The position numbers and the translations under genes are program-made. Source: a virus (Duplodnaviria; Caudoviricetes). From it: a DNA stretch of 64,000 nt. Of this stretch, positions 8,107 through 46,010 are shown piece after piece. Positions within the stretch are counted from its first letter, which is position 1, and the number at the start of each line of letters is the position of its first letter. Location of the stretch: the IMG/VR virus record IMGVR_UViG_3300021387_000688. One strand, written 5' to 3'. The notes beneath the pieces are model-generated. The model did no database searches, had not been told where the DNA came from, and saw nothing but the letters and a program-made list of their open reading frames with translations.

Positions 8107-11073
8107 TTATAACCATTCTCCACCATCAATTACAGAGTTGTTATTCAACAAAGTACCACTATGGTTTGGAAGAACATTGTTTACTTTTCCACCTACAGGT
8201 AAGTGGCTAGGGTTGTAAGTAATGTCTCCTATTTTTAACTCTATAGGTCCATCACTTTCATCTAACTCTTTTTTAACTGTAACCTTTGTATAAAGAGATA
8301 AGTTGTTAAGTACCTCCTCATGGGCGTCGTCAAATGCTTTTACAAGATAGAAACCAAAGCTCAATGAATTTACAGATCCGTCATATGGATTTTCTTTATC
8401 AAGTATGTCAGATGACCTTGACAATATTTGATTAACACGGCTGTCATAAATCTTTTTACCAGTAGGTGTATCTGCAGGTACAAGAGTTTGCAACCAGTCA
8501 ATTCTACCACTAGTTGTTTGATTCATAATTTCGTTGTAAAGATCTTCAATAATCTTTTTAACTACAACGAATCCTGAGTCTACATAAGTTTCAGTTGCAA
8601 GTACTCCAGAATGAGTAGGAAGTTCAAGTACAGGTGCTTTTTCTCCTAATATTTCAAAACTATATTTACCTACACCATTAGTGTCACGGTCTTTTTCTTG
8701 AGTGAACTTAAATTCCTGGAAGTCTAATACTGTATTAGATGTGGTAGATGCCAGCTGTCCTGATTTTTTACCGAAACCGTGTTTAACATATGAATCTGGT
8801 TTGTTTTCTCCAAACATTGATACGTTAAGGGCTTCGCCACCTGCATTTGTTAAGGAATATTCTGTTACCCCCTCATTGATGTACTTACTGAATAAGAACT
8901 CTATAGAATCTAATGCAGGAGTTGCATCTTCTTTTTCTGTTTTAGGCAATTTCAAACCTGCATGGTTTTTAGTTAATTCAATTCTAGAATTCTTTGCAGT
9001 GCCTTTATCACTGATTACAGGGATGTGACCATCATCTACGAAAGCATCTCCGAATTCTCCATCTTTTTTGAAAACTACTGAATTTGGATTACTAAATTCA
9101 AGACTGCTTGGAGTAGGAGTTAATTTAACCTCATGAGGAGCTTCATCTTCCAAAGCTTTTATTGACTTACCATCCCAATTGGTTTCGAAAACTTTTCTCT
9201 GAACGTCTTTGAATTCTGGTATACCTGCTATCTTAACACCGTCCATTAAGATACCAATGAAAGAAGAACTATTGTCTAATACATCAAACTTCTTATCTTC
9301 TCCATTGTAAATAATCCAGTCGCCGTTTTCAAGAGAATGTACCCATTCACCCTCTTTACCATCTTCGTTAGTTAAGTTAGGATCGTGATCATCTTTATTC
9401 TTTGTAAGATTGAAATAATCTCCTAACTTGTCGATTACTAAATGACCGGCATTCCAAATCCAATAACAACCTGCTTGTAACTTAGTATCATATGCAGTGT
9501 TAGCTTCAGATTCATCTTCATCTGTATCTTCTTCATCTACGTTAATGTCAATATTTTTAAAAGCTTCTGTCCAAGCCAAAGCCAAATCATGAGCGGTTTT
9601 CTGTTCAGGTTCTGTTGTTTCGTCGCCATCTTCAATAGCTGTTTTTATAGCAGCTAAAATATCTGGATTGTTGATAGTGCTCATGTATTTAGGAGCACCT
9701 AACAAGAAATCAGGTAATTGAGAAGAAATAATCTTGCCAGTAGAAGGATCGATATCTACTTTAGTAAGGAATAATCTCTTAATATAATCTGTTATGACAT
9801 TGTTTAAATCAGCTTTGAAATCAGCATCAGTACTATATTTATCTGCTACTGCAGATTTATTATTCCAAATGGCTTCTGCATAATCATCTGCACGTTTGTA
9901 TTCCAAGTTTTTTGCAGACAATATATCAAGTAATTTGCCATAGAGTGAAATTACTGAATATGTTACTCCACCATCGACCGCAGGGATAGAAAGAATTAAA
10001 TCCCCTTCATGTAAACGATCTTCTCCGGTAGTGTATCTACCTGTACCGTCGTCAAATGGAACTCTGTGTCTACCATTTGTAAATGGTATATAATGTATTG
10101 CACCATCGAAATCTGTATTTTTAAAGCTTTCTGGAGTAATTGCTTCACAACCTACAATATGGGCTGCTTCGTCATCCTCTGCATTTTCTTCGACTTCAGT
10201 TATTGTTATTGCCTTCCAACCTTCTGGTCCAATCAAAGATTGGAATCTTCTTGCAGGTCCATCTAAGAAATCTTTCAAAGTTGCAATACGGTCCTTTGAG
10301 GGATCTGAACCGAACAAGTCGGTGAAATACTTTTTCATTGAATTGGATACTAAAGCAAATTGGTTAATCTTTGTTAAAGCATCTGTTGAATGACTTAAAT
10401 GAATAACTACATTTTCATCATATACTGGGCTATAGAAGAACAAATCTCCTGGGTTGATTATTTCAGCTGCTTCTGTAGAGCTGTGACCTACATATCTAGA
10501 TTCTACATCTACAGGTTCTTCTCCTCTAGTACCTGGCTCTCTATTTTTGATAGTAGTATCTGTTAAAGTTTCAATGCTTTTATCAGAAGCTTTCAATCCA
10601 TCTGGACTAGTGGATTTAGATATAGGTCTAGTACCTACATACATGAAAATGAAGTTAGGTTTAGTTTTTCCTTTTTCTTTAAGGGCTTCCCAAGGGTCTG
10701 AAACGGTAGAATCAAAACCAATTACTCCACCCCATTTAAGAGCTCCTCCAGAACCTAAAGACCATACTTCTCCGTATCTACCAGAGCCTGCAAACAAATC
10801 CCCTTCAAAGAAAGTATTGATATAAGATTTTGTTCCTAAATCATAGATACGATATTTTCTTTTGCTACTATCTACACCTGCAGGGGCAACTTCTTCACGA
10901 GTTGCTACTACATTCTCTTGTAAAAGATTTACAGTCTGTATAAATAATTCACCACGAGCTAAAACCCTACTATCATTTCTTTTAATAAGGTTACCACGTG
11001 CCTGCTGAATAATTTGATTACCAGTCAATTTTCCAGTGTTTGGATCATTTGATTGTCCGTGATTGTCTGCCAT
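8107..11073 (-). CDS. Large virion (tail/baseplate-associated) protein
   Basis: 988 aa, acidic; GKIISSQLP...GDWIIYNG...FDVLDN module, LPxHSGxL repeats, IDGGEW C-terminus; AAGGAG RBS; ACTAAAT promoter. Confidence 0.6.
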   Translation of the reverse strand: MADNHGQSNDPNTGKLTGNQIIQQARGNLIKRNDSRVLARGELFIQTVNLLQENVVATREEVAPAGVDSSKRKYRIYDLGTKSYINTFFEGDLFAGSGRYGEVWSLGSGGALKWGGVIGFDSTVSDPWEALKEKGKTKPNFIFMYVGTRPISKSTSPDGLKASDKSIETLTDTTIKNREPGTRGEEPVDVESRYVGHSSTEAAEIINPGDLFFYSPVYDENVVIHLSHSTDALTKINQFALVSNSMKKYFTDLFGSDPSKDRIATLKDFLDGPARRFQSLIGPEGWKAITITEVEENAEDDEAAHIVGCEAITPESFKNTDFDGAIHYIPFTNGRHRVPFDDGTGRYTTGEDRLHEGDLILSIPAVDGGVTYSVISLYGKLLDILSAKNLEYKRADDYAEAIWNNKSAVADKYSTDADFKADLNNVITDYIKRLFLTKVDIDPSTGKIISSQLPDFLLGAPKYMSTINNPDILAAIKTAIEDGDETTEPEQKTAHDLALAWTEAFKNIDINVDEEDTDEDESEANTAYDTKLQAGCYWIWNAGHLVIDKLGDYFNLTKNKDDHDPNLTNEDGKEGEWVHSLENGDWIIYNGEDKKFDVLDNSSSFIGILMDGVKIAGIPEFKDVQRKVFETNWDGKSIKALEDEAPHEVKLTPTPSSLEFSNPNSVVFKKDGEFGDAFVDDGHIPVISDKGTAKNSRIELTKNHAGLKLPKTEKEDATPALDSIEFLFSKYINEGVTEYSLTNAGGEALNVSMFGENKPDSYVKHGFGKKSGQLASTTSNTVLDFQEFKFTQEKDRDTNGVGKYSFEILGEKAPVLELPTHSGVLATETYVDSGFVVVKKIIEDLYNEIMNQTTSGRIDWLQTLVPADTPTGKKIYDSRVNQILSRSSDILDKENPYDGSVNSLSFGFYLVKAFDDAHEEVLNNLSLYTKVTVKKELDESDGPIELKIGDITYNPSHLPVGGKVNNVLPNHSGTLLNNNSVIDGGEWL

Positions 11074-11094
11074 ATTTATAATACTCCTTAACTA

Positions 11095-11124
11095 ACTAAT
11101 TAAAACGAAATATAATAATTTAGT
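11095..11124. promoter_or_regulatory. Face-to-face pair of ACTAAWT (late-type) promoters
   Basis: ACTAATT on + (11095-11101) and ACTAAAT on - (11118-11124) between two divergent virion genes. Confidence 0.6.
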
Positions 11125-32842: not shown

Positions 32843-33141
32843 GATACGTATACCTTATTACCATCAATATCGTAATATTTGTTGCGATGTTTTCTGAGCA
32901 ATTTAAGTTCATCTACTGCATCGTACCACTCTGTATAAAATCCCATAGGACGATAAGCTCTATGAGTAGAAGGTGTATTAAGAATTTCCTGTACTTTGGT
33001 TATATCCAAATTGTCAATTGGTTTCAAATGCTCGCAATGAATCTCATTATCATAAGGATAACAATTATCTACTGTACCAATAAAAAGATGGTCCCCTTTT
33101 CTAGCGGCGTCTACACAAAAAGCAATTTCGCGAAAATTCAT
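32839..33141 (-). CDS. Hypothetical protein
   Basis: TAATG coupling. Confidence 0.7.
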   Translation of the reverse strand: MNFREIAFCVDAARKGDHLFIGTVDNCYPYDNEIHCEHLKPIDNLDITKVQEILNTPSTHRAYRPMGFYTEWYDAVDELKLLRKHRNKYYDIDGNKVYVS

Positions 33142-33374
33142 TACGCTTCCTCCTTAATACGAAGTTCAGAAACATCCCACTTATCTTCCATGCACTTGAG
33201 GGCAAACTCAGGAGTAACATCTTTCCAGAAGCCACCGTCTCCGTGGTCATCCCAATACTGAATTGTTTTACCGAGCAATGAAGCTGCAAGCAATTCTGAA
33301 GCCCTTTTAGCTTTTGCATCCATCTGTGCCCATACATTGGCCATCAATTTTGCAATTGTCTCATTTGCTTCCAT
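33141..33374 (-). CDS. Hypothetical protein
   Basis: GGAGG RBS; GKTIQY...W...RIK pattern. Confidence 0.7.
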   Translation of the reverse strand: MEANETIAKLMANVWAQMDAKAKRASELLAASLLGKTIQYWDDHGDGGFWKDVTPEFALKCMEDKWDVSELRIKEEA

Positions 33375-33388
33375 AATTGTCCTCCTGG

Positions 33389-33676
33389 TTATTTATCAAG
33401 CTTTGAATATACAAAGTTATGAATGTTCTTCATATGTTTTTCCCGAGCTACAGGATCATTATGCCATGGACCTATAACATTAAATTCAATAGTTGAATAA
33501 ATACTTTTACGTGAAATCCTTTTTTCTGCAAGTTTTGCTTTCCAATTTGCAAGTGTTTCTTCTGGAATTGTGTCAAGTGTAATTGCTTCGCCAGTAGACT
33601 TTAGTTTAAGATGTCCAGCCTCTGCCTTAACGATTGCTACTGCGATTGAATCCCTAACGTCCTTTTTTGTTGCCAT
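33389..33676 (-). CDS. Hypothetical early protein
   Basis: First gene after conserved promoter copy 2; GAGGT RBS. Confidence 0.75.
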   Translation of the reverse strand: MATKKDVRDSIAVAIVKAEAGHLKLKSTGEAITLDTIPEETLANWKAKLAEKRISRKSIYSTIEFNVIGPWHNDPVAREKHMKNIHNFVYSKLDK

Positions 33677-33689
33677 ATTTCGTACCTCT

Positions 33690-33730
33690 TGATAATAATA
33701 TAGCTAAACCCGGAACCCTGAATTTCTAAA
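33690..33730 (-). promoter_or_regulatory. Conserved early-type promoter (copy 2)
   Basis: Minus strand GAAATT...TTCC...TTAGCTATATTATTATCA. Confidence 0.7.
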
Positions 33731-33742
33731 AAGGCAAAATAA

Positions 33743-33766
33743 TACTCCTATTTTTCAATAGGAGTG
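33743..33766 (-). terminator. Terminator hairpin
   Basis: ACTCCTATT-TTTC-AATAGGAGT downstream of 33773..34468. Confidence 0.6.
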
Positions 33767-33772
33767 TTTTTA

Positions 33773-34468
33773 TTAAATCCTTCTTAAATGATCTTTTGAA
33801 ATCCAACCCGCTAGATATAAACCTACTACTATGTCTCTACCGTCGTAAGAATCTTTTCCTTCTATAGTTATAATATCCTTTGCGGTTCTTCCTAAGTCCG
33901 TTATTGTACCGTATTCGACGGGATTGTCTTTGTCTTCCCAAATTTCTATTTTATCATAACGGTTATTTACATAAGGGATTTTTCCTTCTTTAACATATCT
34001 TTCTGCAATCTCTTTACATTCTTCCATAGAAGGTACATACAATACGGCAGATTTTACATGACGGGAACCTGTAACTTTATTTTCATCCCCTTCATGTCTA
34101 AACTCTACTAAGTAGTATTCTCTTACATCGTTTTCACTTGGCTTTTTAACTTTAGCACTTCCTATAAATTTCTTGTAAAGTTTTTCTGCCAATTTTTTAA
34201 CTTCTTTAGGGTCCTTATAGATTTCTAATGCTTTTTTCCTTAAGTATGCTTTTGAGGTCATCTGTACAACATTTTTATCTGTATATTTTACGACTTCCTC
34301 TACACTAGTCATGCCTTTATCATATACGGCTTCTTCTACTTTATTGGCTATTTCTGTATTAAGACTGGTCCTGAATTTAAATTCATTACCTATATACTCT
34401 ATTGAGTCCATGTAGAGTTTATCTTTATCAATGTTTGCTACTTCAGATTCTCTTATTATTCTAGCCAT
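33773..34468 (-). CDS. Putative internal head protein
   Basis: N-terminal IIRES site; second gene of an ACTAATT unit. Confidence 0.5.
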   Translation of the reverse strand: MARIIRESEVANIDKDKLYMDSIEYIGNEFKFRTSLNTEIANKVEEAVYDKGMTSVEEVVKYTDKNVVQMTSKAYLRKKALEIYKDPKEVKKLAEKLYKKFIGSAKVKKPSENDVREYYLVEFRHEGDENKVTGSRHVKSAVLYVPSMEECKEIAERYVKEGKIPYVNNRYDKIEIWEDKDNPVEYGTITDLGRTAKDIITIEGKDSYDGRDIVVGLYLAGWISKDHLRRI

Positions 34469-34470
34469 GA

Positions 34471-34878
34471 CTAATCTCCGTAAGTAATATTAGGTGCCCA
34501 AGTTTTTTCTTCGAAAGGTTCATCACCCCATTTGACGCCTGGGTTTTGTTTCTTTGTAGGGAATGGATCATCCCCATATTTGATTCCAGGAGTCATAGAT
34601 TTCTCTGGGAAAGATTCTCCATATTTAATGCCTGGCTTATGTACACCGTTTTCTCCGCCTTTTGCATCCCAAGAAGCGAAAGCAGCTTTTCTTCTTCTAT
34701 TACGAATATTGCCACCATCGTTAAATTCATCATTCTCTTCGTATTCAAAAGGTTCTTCTACATCTTCTCTTAAGGCGTTTTCTTTTAGATATTCTTCTTC
34801 CCAATCATAGTCATTTTCAGCTTCTTTAAAAGAATATTCTTGAGTTAAACGTTCTATATCTTTTTGTAAATCACTCAT
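34471..34878 (-). CDS. Putative internal head protein with PGIKYGD repeats
   Basis: ACTAATT-N6-ATG; FKEA, LKEN, LRED sites; four C-terminal repeats. Confidence 0.55.
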   Translation of the reverse strand: MSDLQKDIERLTQEYSFKEAENDYDWEEEYLKENALREDVEEPFEYEENDEFNDGGNIRNRRRKAAFASWDAKGGENGVHKPGIKYGESFPEKSMTPGIKYGDDPFPTKKQNPGVKWGDEPFEEKTWAPNITYGD

Positions 34879-34893
34879 AAACTTAATTAGTAA

Positions 34894-35898
34894 CTACTTT
34901 AGTATCTCAATAATCCTTACGCCGAAGTTTTCATCTAATACAACTACTTCACCTTTTGCAATAGTTTTTCCATTGCATGTAATGTCACAAGGTTCTCCTG
35001 CCAACTTATCGAGTTCGATAATTGTACCTTCTCCCATTTTTGAGATTTCTTTCAATGTTTTAGAAGCGGAACCCAATTTAACTTCTATTGGCAACTTAGT
35101 ATCCATTAAAGGATTTAATCCAATATCTTTAGGGGCGGTTTTAATTTCTTTTTCTCCGTTAATTTCTTTCATAAGTTTTTTTATTATCCTCCAATCAAAT
35201 CCTATATTAAAAAATCCTTCTGATGTAGATTTCTCATCAACCTCTGCACGAAATTCGAAAGTTAATAAGCAATACATTTGGCCCATTTCTAATGGAGACT
35301 TATCTGAATGGTAAGGGTCATCAAAATATTTGATTTTATTTATAGTAGGTGTTTTTAAGTTTTCATAAGAACTGAATGATTTCTTCAACAAACGAAGAAT
35401 AGGATGGAGTACAAGTTTATTATACTTTTTAACTTCTGTAGAAGTAAGTACTCTATTTGTCATTTTAGCTTCAGTTGGTTTACCTTTTGACAAAACAGGA
35501 GGATTATGAATTCCGCACAGATCAAAAACTATAAAAGGATCAATTGAAACAATCATTTCTTGATTATTAAAGTTGCAAACAGTAAAAGGAGAGGGGCAAG
35601 GAAAACTTCTTATACATTCTTCATAGGTTAGTTGATCTACAGAATCTATATGAATATGCACATTGTCTTTTCCATATTGTTTAGAATTAAATAAAAGAGA
35701 TAACTTTTTGGCAAAAAGTTCCCCGATATTAGATACTCTCCTTAATTCTTCTCGAGAAAATCTATCGGGCCTTTTGAAATCGTATATTTTAATTTTTCTA
35801 CGACGATGTTCGTCCATCTCTTCATGATCGTCGTCTCCTGAAGATATTGCTTTCAATAATTGATCTATTTCTGCTTGAGATAATGGTTCTGATCCCAT
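34894..35898 (-). CDS. fliM: Flagellar motor switch FliM-like protein fused to a FliN/FliY-type SpoA domain
   Basis: [10 protein letters not shown] (CheY-P-binding peptide), [27 protein letters not shown]; C-terminal [16 protein letters not shown]...[16 protein letters not shown]. Confidence 0.9.
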
Positions 35899-35917
35899 CT
35901 TTTACACTCCTACTTAT

Positions 35918-35949
35918 AATATAGAAAAGCCTTCCACTAGGAAGGCTTT
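35918..35949 (-). promoter_or_regulatory. Terminator hairpin abutting the CTATATT promoter of the fliM-like gene
   Basis: AAAGCCTTCC-ACTA-GGAAGGCTTT (35926-35949); CTATATT at 35918-35924; AGGAG RBS. Confidence 0.65.
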
Positions 35950-35969
35950 ACTTAAAAGTAAATTAAAAA

Positions 35970-36389
35970 TTACTCCTCTTCTGTTTCATCTTCAAGGTCT
36001 TCATCCTCGGCTTCGATTTCTTCCTCTTCTTCAGGTTCTTCACGAACTGGGGCATCTACTGGATTACCTTCTAACGCAGCTTTGAATTCATCTACGAACA
36101 ATACTGTGTCGTCAAGGTCCATATCCAATTCTGCATATTCACCTGCCCAAGCTTCAATCTTATCTCCCTGACTATCTTTTGCAGTAATCTCATAGGCTTC
36201 CGGGTCCATTGTAAACTCAAAATTCAATTCTGCTTTACCGCAATCTGCAAACCAGTTTACGGCAGAGTTGGAAAGTCTCTGTACAGTTATATCTTCTCTT
36301 CCTAGTTCGTTAAGGAAGTTCAATACCCTTGCTCTCATCTTGGCATTGTAGTTACCTAAGCGCGCTTCCTGTATACGTTCTTTTCTCAT
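35970..36389 (-). CDS. Putative internal head protein (acidic)
   Basis: ACTAATT at 36410-36416; AAGGAG RBS; IQEA and VREE sites. Confidence 0.5.
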   Translation of the reverse strand: MRKERIQEARLGNYNAKMRARVLNFLNELGREDITVQRLSNSAVNWFADCGKAELNFEFTMDPEAYEITAKDSQGDKIEAWAGEYAELDMDLDDTVLFVDEFKAALEGNPVDAPVREEPEEEEEIEAEDEDLEDETEEE

Positions 36390-36415
36390 TAAAGTCTCCT
36401 TTATAGGATAATTAG

Positions 36416-36631
36416 TTATTTAGAAGAGAATTTAATAGTAACTGTTTTACTTAGATTGTCTACTTGATAATCAAATGCAGGGTCTTTAAGATGCAAATCT
36501 ACATTTCCGTTCCCATTAAGGATTTGAAATTCTACATCATGCAACGATAACCCCTCGTTAGCCCAAAGTTGGAAAAGATTAGCAATACCTGCTACTGTTA
36601 ATTTTTCAGACATTTCTCCTCCAATAATCAT
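36416..36631 (-). CDS. Hypothetical protein
   Basis: Array member; probable start at MSEK. Confidence 0.6.
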   Translation of the reverse strand: MIIGGEMSEKLTVAGIANLFQLWANEGLSLHDVEFQILNGNGNVDLHLKDPAFDYQVDNLSKTVTIKFSSK

Positions 36632-36717
36632 CTCTATTCTTCATATTAGATACATGATCCATGTATACAAAGATGCATACAAATACAAATGCCATTCCCA
36701 ATGCTAATGAAATCATA

Positions 36718-36927
36718 TTAATTCTCCTCCATTTTACAAGCTTTATATCCTGCAATAAAACTTTGACGGGCTTGCAATTCCTCACAAGGATCATCAAAGA
36801 ATTTATTACTACTATACTTCTTCCAAGCTAATTCTGCTTTCTTTTGAATACTTGCAAATTCTCTTATTTCAAGAGGTTGCTTAGTTTTTACCTTCTTCGA
36901 CCCATTCGAGAAAAATCCCATCTTCAA
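36718..36927 (-). CDS. Hypothetical protein
   Basis: SFIAGY pattern typical of small phage proteins. Confidence 0.55.
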   Translation of the reverse strand: MKMGFFSNGSKKVKTKQPLEIREFASIQKKAELAWKKYSSNKFFDDPCEELQARQSFIAGYKACKMEEN

Positions 36928-37267
36928 ATGCTCCTCTTTCTTTTCGCTTTTTAATTACTGCTTCAAAAACCTGCTTAGTAGATATGTTAAAGGCTTTCAA
37001 AGCATTTATATAAACTTCAAATAGGTCTGCCATTTCTTCTATAAGTTTTTCATATTCGGCGTCCCCATGACCTGCTTCAACACCGCAAACATGATCAAGC
37101 CATTCCCATGCATTAAAAACTTCTTCAGATTCTTCTTTAAGTTTCTTTGCAATAGCTCTATCGTAAGCAGAGCCTTTTACAACTTTTGCTTTAAAGGAAA
37201 GTCCTTTACCAATAATAATGTTAGGAATCTTATCTCTTACAAGTTTATTATAAGTTGTCTTTTTCAT
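36881..37267 (-). CDS. MazG-like / phosphoribosyl-ATP pyrophosphohydrolase-family protein
   Basis: YNKLVRDKIP...KLKEE..E...EEMADLFEV...KRKERGAF..GIFL. Confidence 0.85.
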   Translation of the reverse strand: MKKTTYNKLVRDKIPNIIIGKGLSFKAKVVKGSAYDRAIAKKLKEESEEVFNAWEWLDHVCGVEAGHGDAEYEKLIEEMADLFEVYINALKAFNISTKQVFEAVIKKRKERGAFEDGIFLEWVEEGKN

Positions 37268-37521
37268 TCTTCTACCTCCCTATTCTGTAATGGAGTTGAA
37301 TTCAAATAATATTCTGGGCATTCACTCATATCGTCATCTAACTCTTCTTCTGTTAGTTCTACACCTGAACAATTGCAAAAATATTTATTTTCTTTTCCTT
37401 TGCAAGCTACTGCACAATACCTGCAACAATGTTGATACGCTTTCATTAATACCTTCCTATTACAAAACCTACTATCATTCCTAAACCGAAAAAGATTATA
37501 CCAAACATTATCCGGGTCCAA
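37264..37521 (-). CDS. Cys-rich hypothetical protein
   Basis: CCRYCAVAC...FCNC...CPEY; probable start at MKAY. Confidence 0.55.
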   Translation of the reverse strand: MDPDNVWYNLFRFRNDSRFCNRKVLMKAYQHCCRYCAVACKGKENKYFCNCSGVELTEEELDDDMSECPEYYLNSTPLQNREVEE

Positions 37522-37703
37522 AATGAACGATTAATGTTAAACTTTACCCCAGGGCCAAATAAAGCTTTTATTGGATTGTAATCCTCTTTTACCATTTCCA
37601 ATTTTGGAGGCTCGGGAACCGGAACATCTTTTGCAGTTAATCTCTTAGCTTCTTTTCTTAAAGCTTCTTTCTCTTCTTCAGTTACAGGAATTTCTGTCAG
37701 CAT
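37446..37703 (-). CDS. Hypothetical protein with C-terminal TM helix
   Basis: IMFGIIFFGLGMIVGFVIG. Confidence 0.65.
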   Translation of the reverse strand: MLTEIPVTEEEKEALRKEAKRLTAKDVPVPEPPKLEMVKEDYNPIKALFGPGVKFNINRSFWTRIMFGIIFFGLGMIVGFVIGRY

Positions 37704-39001
37704 TTTGAGCCCACCTTTATAATTAATTCCAACATTTGTTTTAAGATACTCTTTACCTGGGAAATATCATAACTGTGAGGTAAACGATTCAAACTTTCGT
37801 TTATAGCATTAACCATATCTGCAGTAGAATTAGATTCACCACCAATTGTTTCTATATAACATTTATCCCAATGTTCAGGGTCTCCATAGTCTTCAGGATG
37901 TTCTTTAGCGAATTTTCTAAAGTCTTCTGCCTCTTCATCTGGAAGTTCTTTAAGATGTTCTTCTAATGAAATGCGTTCAATGCCTCGTTCCTTTTTCAAA
38001 AATTCTCTATAAAGTTTTTCCCATTCTTCATAAAGGATAGGTTCGAAAATCGCAAGCATTGCAGGATAATTAATTTTCAAGAAAGTTTTAAAATCTTTAA
38101 TTCTTTCATCTTCTTTAACTTGAGATTCGAGATAGTCTTCAAGTGTGTAAAGTCCTACTTTTTTATTCTCATACTTTTCTGAAAACTTTTTATAATCTTC
38201 CTGCCATTCTTCTCTTGTTCTTTTTAGAGAGATATCCCAATCTGCTGATTGACAAAATGCACTTGCTTTTACTTTGTCATCAATGAAAGCCTCAGTATAT
38301 TCTGACAAAGAATAAGTTTCTGCTTTAAGATTCTCTTCGGCTCTCTTCTTAAAGATTTCTTCTAATTCCTTTTGAGAGGTTTCTGGAAGATATTCTTTCT
38401 TTCCATAGAATCTCCAAATATTTGGAGAATACCATCGAAGCATTTTAATATTATTTTTTACTGTAACGATGTTGCAGAAGTTATGATTGTAACAAAAAGC
38501 TAACATAGGGATATTTTCAAGATCCCATTCTGTAACCATTGGTTCTCCATACTTCGCTTTAAATTCCATTACTTGTTCGTAAGTAGGATCATTAAACTTT
38601 AAGCGAATCTTTCCTTCTGCAAATTGAGAGAAGTCTAAAGGAAGTCCTGGTGGAAGTACATTCCATTCATCTCCATCAAAATATTCAATTTCTGCACCCT
38701 GCTCATAACAATTTTTCAAGAGTTTCTGAGAGTCAATTAAAAATTGATTTTTATTTTTCTTTTCCTTTTTAATCATTTCTTTTCCTTCTGTCGTATACAT
38801 TTTGTGCAAGTTTCCCCATCCTTTGATGCTCATATCCTCATATTCATAACCTGCTTTTTTAGCCCACTCCTCAAAGTCGATTGTATCTGCTTTACTATAT
38901 CCTAAAGTCTTGCAGTATTCTTCGAGACTATAAGGTTTATTCTTTTCATATTCTAATGCTTCTTGCAAAGAATCAAAAGTGTCGCAAATAAGTCTTTTCA
39001 T
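37697..39001 (-). CDS. Hypothetical protein with internal repeats
   Basis: YSLEEY / YSLSEY / YTLEDY / ISLEEH units. Confidence 0.75.
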   Translation of the reverse strand: MKRLICDTFDSLQEALEYEKNKPYSLEEYCKTLGYSKADTIDFEEWAKKAGYEYEDMSIKGWGNLHKMYTTEGKEMIKKEKKNKNQFLIDSQKLLKNCYEQGAEIEYFDGDEWNVLPPGLPLDFSQFAEGKIRLKFNDPTYEQVMEFKAKYGEPMVTEWDLENIPMLAFCYNHNFCNIVTVKNNIKMLRWYSPNIWRFYGKKEYLPETSQKELEEIFKKRAEENLKAETYSLSEYTEAFIDDKVKASAFCQSADWDISLKRTREEWQEDYKKFSEKYENKKVGLYTLEDYLESQVKEDERIKDFKTFLKINYPAMLAIFEPILYEEWEKLYREFLKKERGIERISLEEHLKELPDEEAEDFRKFAKEHPEDYGDPEHWDKCYIETIGGESNSTADMVNAINESLNRLPHSYDISQVKSILKQMLELIIKVGSKC

Positions 39002-45969: not shown

Positions 45970-46010
45970 GAAAAAGGTTTCATAAAGAAAACCTCTTCTA
46001 TATTTTAGGT

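Follow-up and report, generated by a model that had tools for sequence, protein, structure and literature searches.

A gene on the minus strand of the IMG/VR virus record IMGVR_UViG_3300021387_000688 (Duplodnaviria; Caudoviricetes) encodes a protein of 334 residues, P0001, that joins a CheY-docking peptide and a diverged middle domain, both of the type found in the flagellar switch protein FliM, to a C-terminal SpoA domain of the FliN/FliY type, and that has no GGxG motif. The stretch of DNA analysed here, referred to as the window, is 64,000 nucleotides (nt) long and belongs to a huge phage. The reading favoured for P0001, to which we give about an even chance, is that of a decoy subunit that would bind phosphorylated CheY (CheY-P) and/or enter the base of the flagellar motor's cytoplasmic ring (C-ring) without coupling to FliG.

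The hybrid nature of P0001 is evident from family models. Pfam places FliM (PF02154) at residues 39–182, with 66.7 bits against a cut-off of 27 bits and a match covering profile positions 1–138 of 192, and FliMN_C at residues 264–333 with 78.8 bits. The NCBIfam FliM equivalog TIGR01397 aligns over the full length and scores 110.5 bits, below its cut-off of 219.6, and the FliY model NF005995 scores 106 bits, below its cut-off of 218; the fliN domain model TIGR02480 scores 92 bits, above its cut-off of 84.05. When the two parts of the protein are searched separately by BLAST, residues 1–250 match canonical Treponema FliM at 35% identity (E 1e-36 to 1e-38), the match of this part to Treponema FliY being limited to a 19-residue peptide, and residues 250–334 match the C-terminal end of Treponema FliY at 64–66% identity (E 1e-27). 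With BLAST hits admitted up to E ≤ 10, the C-domain matches none of three canonical FliMs of spirochaetes (two from Treponema and one from Turneriella), and Salmonella FliM aligns to residues 1–126 of P0001 only. An original prediction, made from the sequence alone, had described the protein as a chimera of FliM and FliN/FliY; the hybrid architecture stands, whilst the notion of a unique fusion does not, as a large family of such proteins exists.

The N-terminal peptide LSQxEIDxLL is intact, as had been predicted: residues 6–15 align letter for letter with LSQAEID-LL at the N-terminus of Salmonella FliM (8umd_C), and L6 and L15 are invariant in the family alignment. Residues 1–48 searched alone with phmmer gave no match in the PDB. 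The protein strings quoted in the original prediction were all found in the translation of P0001, at residues 6–15, 39–48, 126–132 (DLCGIHN), 290–304 and 315–330.

The middle domain retains the FliM fold but has lost the GGxG loop. The AlphaFold2 model of P0001 has a mean predicted local distance difference test (pLDDT) score of 75, rising to about 90 over most of the middle domain, and Foldseek returns template modelling (TM) scores of 0.78–0.84 to FliM middle domains, 0.69–0.73 to FliY and 0.61–0.66 to CheC. GGxG is absent from P0001, both by regular expression and in alignments to longer FliM-FliN relatives and to Helicobacter pylori FliM; at the aligned stretch the letters are LCGIHN (SKGK by HMMER), together with an insertion. 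The earlier description of a diverged middle domain in which DLCGIHN occupies the GGxG position is therefore upheld, with the loop remodelled. No Pfam match to CheC and no D/S-x3-E-x2-N-x22-P phosphatase motif were found in P0001. A complex prediction pairing residues 120–370 of Treponema bryantii FliG with residues 40–255 of P0001 scored 0.00, a value that carries no weight either way.

A linker of just 13 residues connects the middle domain to the FliN-type domain. Aligned with the long FliM-FliN form P0050, P0001 is covered over residues 6–247 and 264–333 and an inner segment of about 115 residues is missing; judged by this alignment, the missing segment is FliM's own SpoA domain. The C-domain that follows scores 100.6 bits with a FliN-type hidden Markov model (HMM), matches Thermotoga maritima FliN (1o6a, 1yab) at 59–60% identity (E 1e-20) as well as Salmonella FliN; in the engineered FliM::FliN fusion 4YXB, the FliN half is the part to which it aligns. 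At the DNA level it matches fliY 3' ends with 72–79% identity over 120–160 nt in 247 of 301 Treponemataceae genomes. It is a bona fide FliN domain, in agreement with the FliN/FliY-type C-terminus originally proposed. In the AlphaFold2 monomer the SpoA domain has a pLDDT of 53–72, which is expected because SpoA is an obligate dimer.

P0001 is consequently neither a FliM nor a FliY by the usual tests of membership: it lacks GGxG, carries another type of SpoA domain, falls below the FliM cut-off and lies in no flagellar operon; equally, it has no CheC domain or motif and falls below the FliY cut-off. With canonical FliM (from Treponema, and from T. maritima and H. pylori: 2HP7, 4FHR, 4FQ0) it shares the LSQxEIDxLL peptide, the SVDQLTYEE motif and a second, 11-residue motif, the fold of the middle domain (TM about 0.8), a similar overall length and the possession of a C-terminal SpoA domain. 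It differs in lacking GGxG, in the FliN type of that domain, in being only 35% identical, in being encoded by a phage and in evolving fast; moreover, the canonical Treponema fliM sits in a motA-motB-fliL-fliM-fliY operon, whereas the P0001 gene is outside any such operon. FliY (Bacillus subtilis, T. maritima 4HYN, Treponema) has the same order of modules, a middle domain that does not bind FliG and a similar C-domain, but the middle domain of P0001 is FliM-like rather than CheC-like, and detectable similarity to Treponema FliY is limited to the peptide and the C-domain. The last 70 residues resemble FliN (TIGR02480; 1O6A/1YAB; the Salmonella C-ring 8UMD) and keep its GEVVV...FGVRI core, although FliN is a small stand-alone protein and in P0001 the domain forms the tail of a FliM-like protein. 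The long FliM-FliN forms of 420–465 residues (from the huge phage G001 and a Treponema metagenome-assembled genome) share the peptide with P0001, resemble it in the middle domain and end in a FliN-type domain that is 66–69% identical; like the P0001 gene, theirs are found outside flagellar operons, in some cases in phages. In contrast to P0001, they retain GGxG and the inner FliM-type SpoA segment of about 115 residues, come paired with FliG and fall with canonical FliM in the tree; P0001 has no FliG neighbour.

The gene for P0001 is a genuine phage gene. The window has an even G+C content of about 34% and dense genes, mostly of unknown function, arranged in long same-strand runs; PHROG families recognise a phage GroEL (E 5e-102) as well as an SbcC-like nuclease subunit; other genes with a family assignment encode radical-SAM and MazG-like proteins, the latter being the only family assigned among the neighbours of P0001. 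No structural or virion genes were identified within the window. An identical GroEL protein is present on a metagenome contig of 397,621 bp, and the P0001 gene is therefore placed in a huge phage of roughly 400 kb. A scan of the window's six frames with HMMs for FliG and for the FliM-like family brought up no second FliM, FliN or FliG homologue, so that the earlier description of a lone flagellar gene among phage genes holds over this length. A 30.7-kb contig from a second sample covers positions 33000–38000 at 99% identity, a 9.6-kb contig from another study covers the gene and both its neighbours at 97%, and a diverged relative (contigs L001–L003) carries a homologue at the same place in a collinear block. 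The G+C content of the gene (0.318) and that of its third codon positions (GC3; 0.218) are close to the phage means (0.342 and 0.273) and unlike those of T. bryantii fliM (0.416 and 0.332). These independent assemblies, the synteny and the phage-like composition contradict an assembly chimera: the context is real. Several GenBank 'phage' records with fliM consist of bacterial-looking DNA (Microcystis phage MaAM05, for example) and one IMG/VR phage has a split copy, and it might be supposed on this account that a bacterial fliM was misassembled into a phage contig or that the gene is a decaying pseudogene; against the spanning contigs, the synteny, the composition and an intact frame under selective constraint, such an artefact is hardly credible.

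The constraint is seen in comparison with a natural variant that is 92% identical (L098), where the ratio of nonsynonymous to synonymous substitution rates (dN/dS) is 0.11 for the whole gene and 0.06, 0.14 and 0.07 for the N-terminal, middle and C-terminal domains respectively, indicating purifying selection. Conservation is uneven along the protein. Across 23 members of the clade that contains P0001 (clade A, below), mean identity to P0001 is highest in the CheY-type peptide (63%), followed by the FliN domain (59%), the first half of the middle domain (41%) and its second half (24%), and is lowest in the former GGxG loop (19%). The gene is also among the fastest-evolving shared genes of the syntenic block: P0001 is 49% identical to its homologue at positions 10001–11044 of L001, compared with 74% and 78% for the flanking genes, a difference that would fit a host-interaction gene tracking its host partners.

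Relatives of P0001 are numerous, and both a word-indexed search and an exhaustive HMMER search return many. Among 257 related proteins that were gathered, at least 50 have its architecture, defined as a length of up to 375 residues, a single SpoA domain of the FliN type, absence of GGxG and presence of a CheY-type peptide; a further 17 differ only by a peptide outside the search pattern. Members are found in the syntenic phage relative, on a phage-like contig that also carries ThyX, a gene of the poly(A)-polymerase family and an HNH gene, and in IMG/VR records of 154 kb and 305.8 kb, the latter with the split copy. IMG/VR yielded no locus when searched with P0001 alone and five loci in an alignment-based scan. 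The nearest clusters in the ESM Atlas are FliM-like, and their few recorded taxa are mostly Uroviricota or Spirochaetota. In spirochaete genomes, members lie outside flagellar operons, in islands of a mobile or defence character, and near genes for an AAA+ ATPase, PcfJ, a MoxR-type AAA_5 protein with DUF2201, McrBC and a UvrD-like helicase. The family is large, old and diverse, and present in spirochaete chromosomes as well as in phages.

A maximum-likelihood tree of the N-terminal and middle parts (57 rows, computed by a quick method with two poor outgroups) separates two groups. The long-branched clade A, with a Shimodaira–Hasegawa-like approximate likelihood ratio test (SH-aLRT) support of 98, takes in P0001 together with almost every short form and the orphans of T. 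bryantii, and no member of this clade has GGxG by regular expression. Canonical Spirochaetota FliM and the long FliM-FliN forms make up a short-branched group in which GGxG is kept, and the long forms directly follow a FliG gene in the 329-kb phage and in the Treponema metagenome-assembled genome. On this tree clade A is fast-evolving and separate from canonical FliM.

Several individual genomes illustrate the range of contexts. In the 305.8-kb IMG/VR phage (L012, with terminal repeats) the FliM-like gene is divided into two overlapping open reading frames (ORFs) of 225 and 155 residues (9983–10660 and 10654–11121), which could be due to a frameshift, a sequencing error or decay. The complete huge phage 3300010167_000010 (G001; 329 kb, with direct terminal repeats) has a FliG gene that overlaps the start of its 465-residue long form, and also encodes a flagellin (a frame of 297 residues), a GGDEF protein and homing endonucleases. 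In rumen T. bryantii (genome G006; loci L115 9609–10787, L116 8543–9703 and L122–L125) there are four FliG-like and at least five FliM-like genes; of two orphans examined, one adjoins a gene for a 720-residue AAA+ ATPase with an IetA-like match and has a PcfJ-like gene nearby, and the second has a McrBC pair and a gene for a UvrD-like helicase in its neighbourhood. A short FliM-like gene stands beside AAA_5 and DUF2201 genes in a metagenome-assembled genome titled Anaerobutyricum sp. (CAVHTI010000037.1), which has a Treponema-like fliM and fliY and whose surrounding phylum sample is identical to that of T. bryantii; the NCBI name is probably wrong.

The architecture of P0001 would best be explained by uncoupling. 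The switch of Escherichia coli has three CheY-binding sites, in the N-terminal region of FliM (FliM_N), in FliN and in the middle domain of FliM (FliM_M) (PMC7957414), and P0001 unites homologues of all three. The GGxG loop of FliM together with the EHPQR loop of FliG forms the interface between FliM_M and the middle domain of FliG, and FliM and FliN exchange in working motors; pairs of FliN and the C-terminal domain of FliM (FliM_C) also hold FliH of the export apparatus (PMC7355467). With the docking peptide and a host-like FliN domain kept and the FliG coupler discarded, P0001 is most simply read as an uncoupled decoy. In this mechanism the FliM_N peptide would dock CheY-P of the host, the FliM-type middle domain, its GGxG gone, would make no coupling to FliG, and the SpoA domain would pair with host FliM_C, FliY or FliN, whether within the C-ring base or free in the cytoplasm. 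The decoy would then soak up CheY-P and/or fill FliN/FliY positions while passing no signal to FliG, so that motor switching in the infected cell would be altered, and possibly FliH-dependent flagellar export too. The benefit to the phage might, speculatively, be dispersal, energy saving or the exclusion of flagellum-dependent competitors. What we infer here comprises CheY-P binding, pairing of the SpoA domain with host proteins, a failure to bind FliG, the direction in which motility is affected and the gain to the phage. The occurrence of the same architecture in other phage contigs and IMG/VR phages counts in favour of a decoy, and the identity of about 35% to canonical FliM, on long branches, argues against a simple spare part.

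Several considerations weigh against the decoy. The middle domain is probably more than a spacer, because it is under purifying selection (dN/dS 0.14) and has a confidently predicted fold. Relatives of the same fold keep GGxG beside a phage FliG, so that the aim of some phages may be to make working switch parts and not to poison them. The positions of the clade A chromosomal orphans near AAA+ ATPases, PcfJ and McrBC hint at roles outside the motor. Finally, the motility of the host and its identity as a spirochaete are themselves predictions.

Cyanophages supply photosystem parts, and by analogy P0001 may be a constructive replacement or remodelling part of the C-ring that, perhaps in concert with further flagellar genes borne by the phage, keeps motors running or rebuilds them after host expression has been shut off. 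Its domains run from CheY peptide through CheC/FliM-fold middle domain to FliN domain, an order shared with FliY, which is a true part of the C-ring; all three of its domains are under purifying selection; and the complete phage G001 combines FliG, a GGxG-keeping long FliM-FliN form and a flagellin. Remodelling of the flagellum through a phage flagellin has also been described (PMC13418256): phage-borne flagellar genes change the host flagellum in the TldR/phage flagellin system of temperate enterobacterial phages, where the expression of filament genes and the identity of the flagellin are affected, whereas the candidate target of P0001 is predicted to be the switch complex or CheY. A spare part is nevertheless unlikely. 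The identity of about 35% to canonical FliM is low and the middle domain has no similarity to Treponema FliY, the loss of GGxG leaves P0001 unable to stand in for FliM, its scores are far under the FliM and FliY equivalog cut-offs, and its evolution is faster than that of neighbouring phage genes and much faster than that of the switch proteins of hosts, which is untypical of spare-part genes.

A role outside the motor is less probable still. P0001 might serve a mobile element as an adaptor that reuses SpoA dimerisation and the docking peptide, for example with an AAA+ ATPase or in a conflict system, or might be packaged in the virion and enter the cell along with the DNA. The clade A orphans, beside the IetA-like AAA+ ATPase and near PcfJ, AAA_5/DUF2201, McrBC and the UvrD-like helicase rather than in flagellar operons, speak for such a role, as does the position of the P0001 gene downstream of the recurrent motif CTATATT. 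However, conservation is strongest in precisely the two modules whose partners, in the motor or in CheY, are known: at every residue the peptide agrees with the consensus for CheY docking, and the FliN domain is still 64–66% identical to that of host FliY. In addition, no PADLOC defence-system model matches P0001, and no gene for an AAA+ partner adjoins its gene in the phage. The uncoupled decoy remains the preferred account.

The host is quite probably a Treponema-like gut or rumen spirochaete. Among the canonical FliMs compared with P0001, those of Treponema score highest (123–126 bits), followed by H. pylori (51 bits), a FliM on a faecal scaffold (44), T. maritima (26) and Salmonella (about 20); outside Spirochaetota the comparison covers a few proteins only (PDB proteins, L118 and L119). 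The FliN domain alone does not discriminate between hosts, because T. maritima FliN already reaches 59–60% identity. Clade A orphans occur in rumen T. bryantii, and the gut habitat agrees: metagenome runs with the P0001 sequence come from animal gut and sheep gut. A search of 301 Treponemataceae genomes for CRISPR spacers, made with 20 kb of DNA and with two candidates scored per genome, returned mostly fliY 3' homology. The original prediction had moved from spirochaete-like wording to a Treponema-like host; the nearest cellular relatives are indeed in Spirochaetota and the habitat fits, leaving the host likely, not proven. Contigs from RNA libraries (X20, about 94% identical) cover the P0001 gene, with DNA carry-over possible, and in the near-identical RNA run X8 no contig crosses the interior of the gene.

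The features of the locus are collected in Table 1. The gene had been given the interval 34894–35949; the ORF is real and occupies 34894–35898, and the remainder consists of upstream signals that are non-coding for P0001. On the coding strand these follow one another in the order hairpin, CTATATT, AGGAG and ATG. The proposal that the gene has its own promoter and ribosome-binding site holds for AGGAG, 8 nt from the ATG, and is helped by the recurrence of CTATATT near starts, the promoter itself being a consensus match only. The window has 20 copies of CTATATT, and nine of them are located no more than 60 nt upstream of a called start on their own strand, where chance would give about one.

Table 1. 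Features of the P0001 locus (positions in the window)
Feature	Position	Strand	Description and basis
FliM-FliN hybrid coding sequence, P0001	34894..35898	minus	334 residues, ATG start; stop codon 34894–34896; ORF list, translation
FliM_N-type CheY-docking peptide	35839..35898	minus	residues 1–20; LSQxEIDxLL match at 6–15
FliM-type middle domain (CheC/FliM fold), diverged	35149..35790	minus	residues 37–250; Pfam, AlphaFold2, Foldseek
Remodelled loop at FliM GGxG position, without GG	35443..35517	minus	residues 128–152; alignments, regular expression
FliN/FliY-type SpoA domain	34900..35109	minus	residues 264–333; TIGR02480, PDB FliN, BLAST
AGGAG ribosome-binding site	35907..35911	minus	8 nt 5' of ATG; read from sequence
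CTATATT promoter-like motif	35918..35924	minus	consensus match only; recurrent in phage
Terminator-like hairpin of upstream gene	35926..35949	minus	10-bp stem then T-rich tail; pattern scan

Across the window, CTATATT is enriched about 8-fold just 5' of start codons, with examples on the minus strand at 35918, 31511, 33697, 42608, 59417 and 62576 and on the plus strand at 45998. Several copies lie only 7 nt from the start codon, which suggests leaderless or very short-leader transcripts at such sites. On the minus strand, a gene for a protein of 135 residues (34471–34878) begins 16 nt past the P0001 stop codon and is probably co-transcribed with the P0001 gene. Its product belongs to no Pfam family, has an acidic N-terminal half and four PG(I/V)K(Y/W)G(D/E)-type repeats in its C-terminal half, and is 78% identical in the related phage L001. 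Upstream on the same strand, a gene (35970–36389) encodes a protein of 139 residues that ends in a long Glu/Asp-rich tail, notably at 36000–36032; this low-complexity stretch draws many unrelated contigs in read mapping and thereby causes local spikes in depth.

Flagella serve as receptors for phages, and a few phages change filament genes. A full-text literature search returned no study of a phage-encoded FliM, FliN or FliG protein; FliG appears in a passing listing among putative viral auxiliary genes in PMC12993620. Deposited phage genomes offered no true precedent by tblastn and megablast, and 12 kb of the window had no megablast match in deposited GenBank phages. The fliM of Microcystis phage MaAM05 (MW495066.1) was considered as a precedent and rejected, as the stretch 102600–115538 looks bacterial, with fliM flanked by murJ, an acyl-CoA dehydrogenase gene, pomA, ompA, fabI and engB; tblastn matches in Listeria and Salmonella 'phage' are short unannotated records.

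Taken more broadly, and held more tentatively than the decoy reading of P0001 alone, huge phages and mobile elements of spirochaetes may carry an undescribed and diverse family of C-ring mimics, accompanied in some phages by FliG, long FliM-FliN forms and flagellin, with which a virus would directly control the chemotactic switch or the periplasmic-flagellar motor of its host during infection; P0001 would be an uncoupled decoy in this family, binding CheY-P and the base of the ring but not FliG. The family amounts to a natural experiment in which the CheY peptide and the FliN domain have been kept and the FliG loop discarded. P0001 is small and easily expressed, and its predicted partners (CheY, FliM_C, FliY, FliG and FliH) are known, which makes the idea directly testable. 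Should P0001 sequester CheY-P or cap the C-ring, it would act as a naturally occurring inhibitor or modulator of the motor's switching, and would provide a handle on the assembly of FliM, FliY and FliN in the motors of spirochaetes, for which genetic dissection is difficult. Such activity would further be evidence that, in communities of the gut and rumen, viruses direct how infected cells swim.

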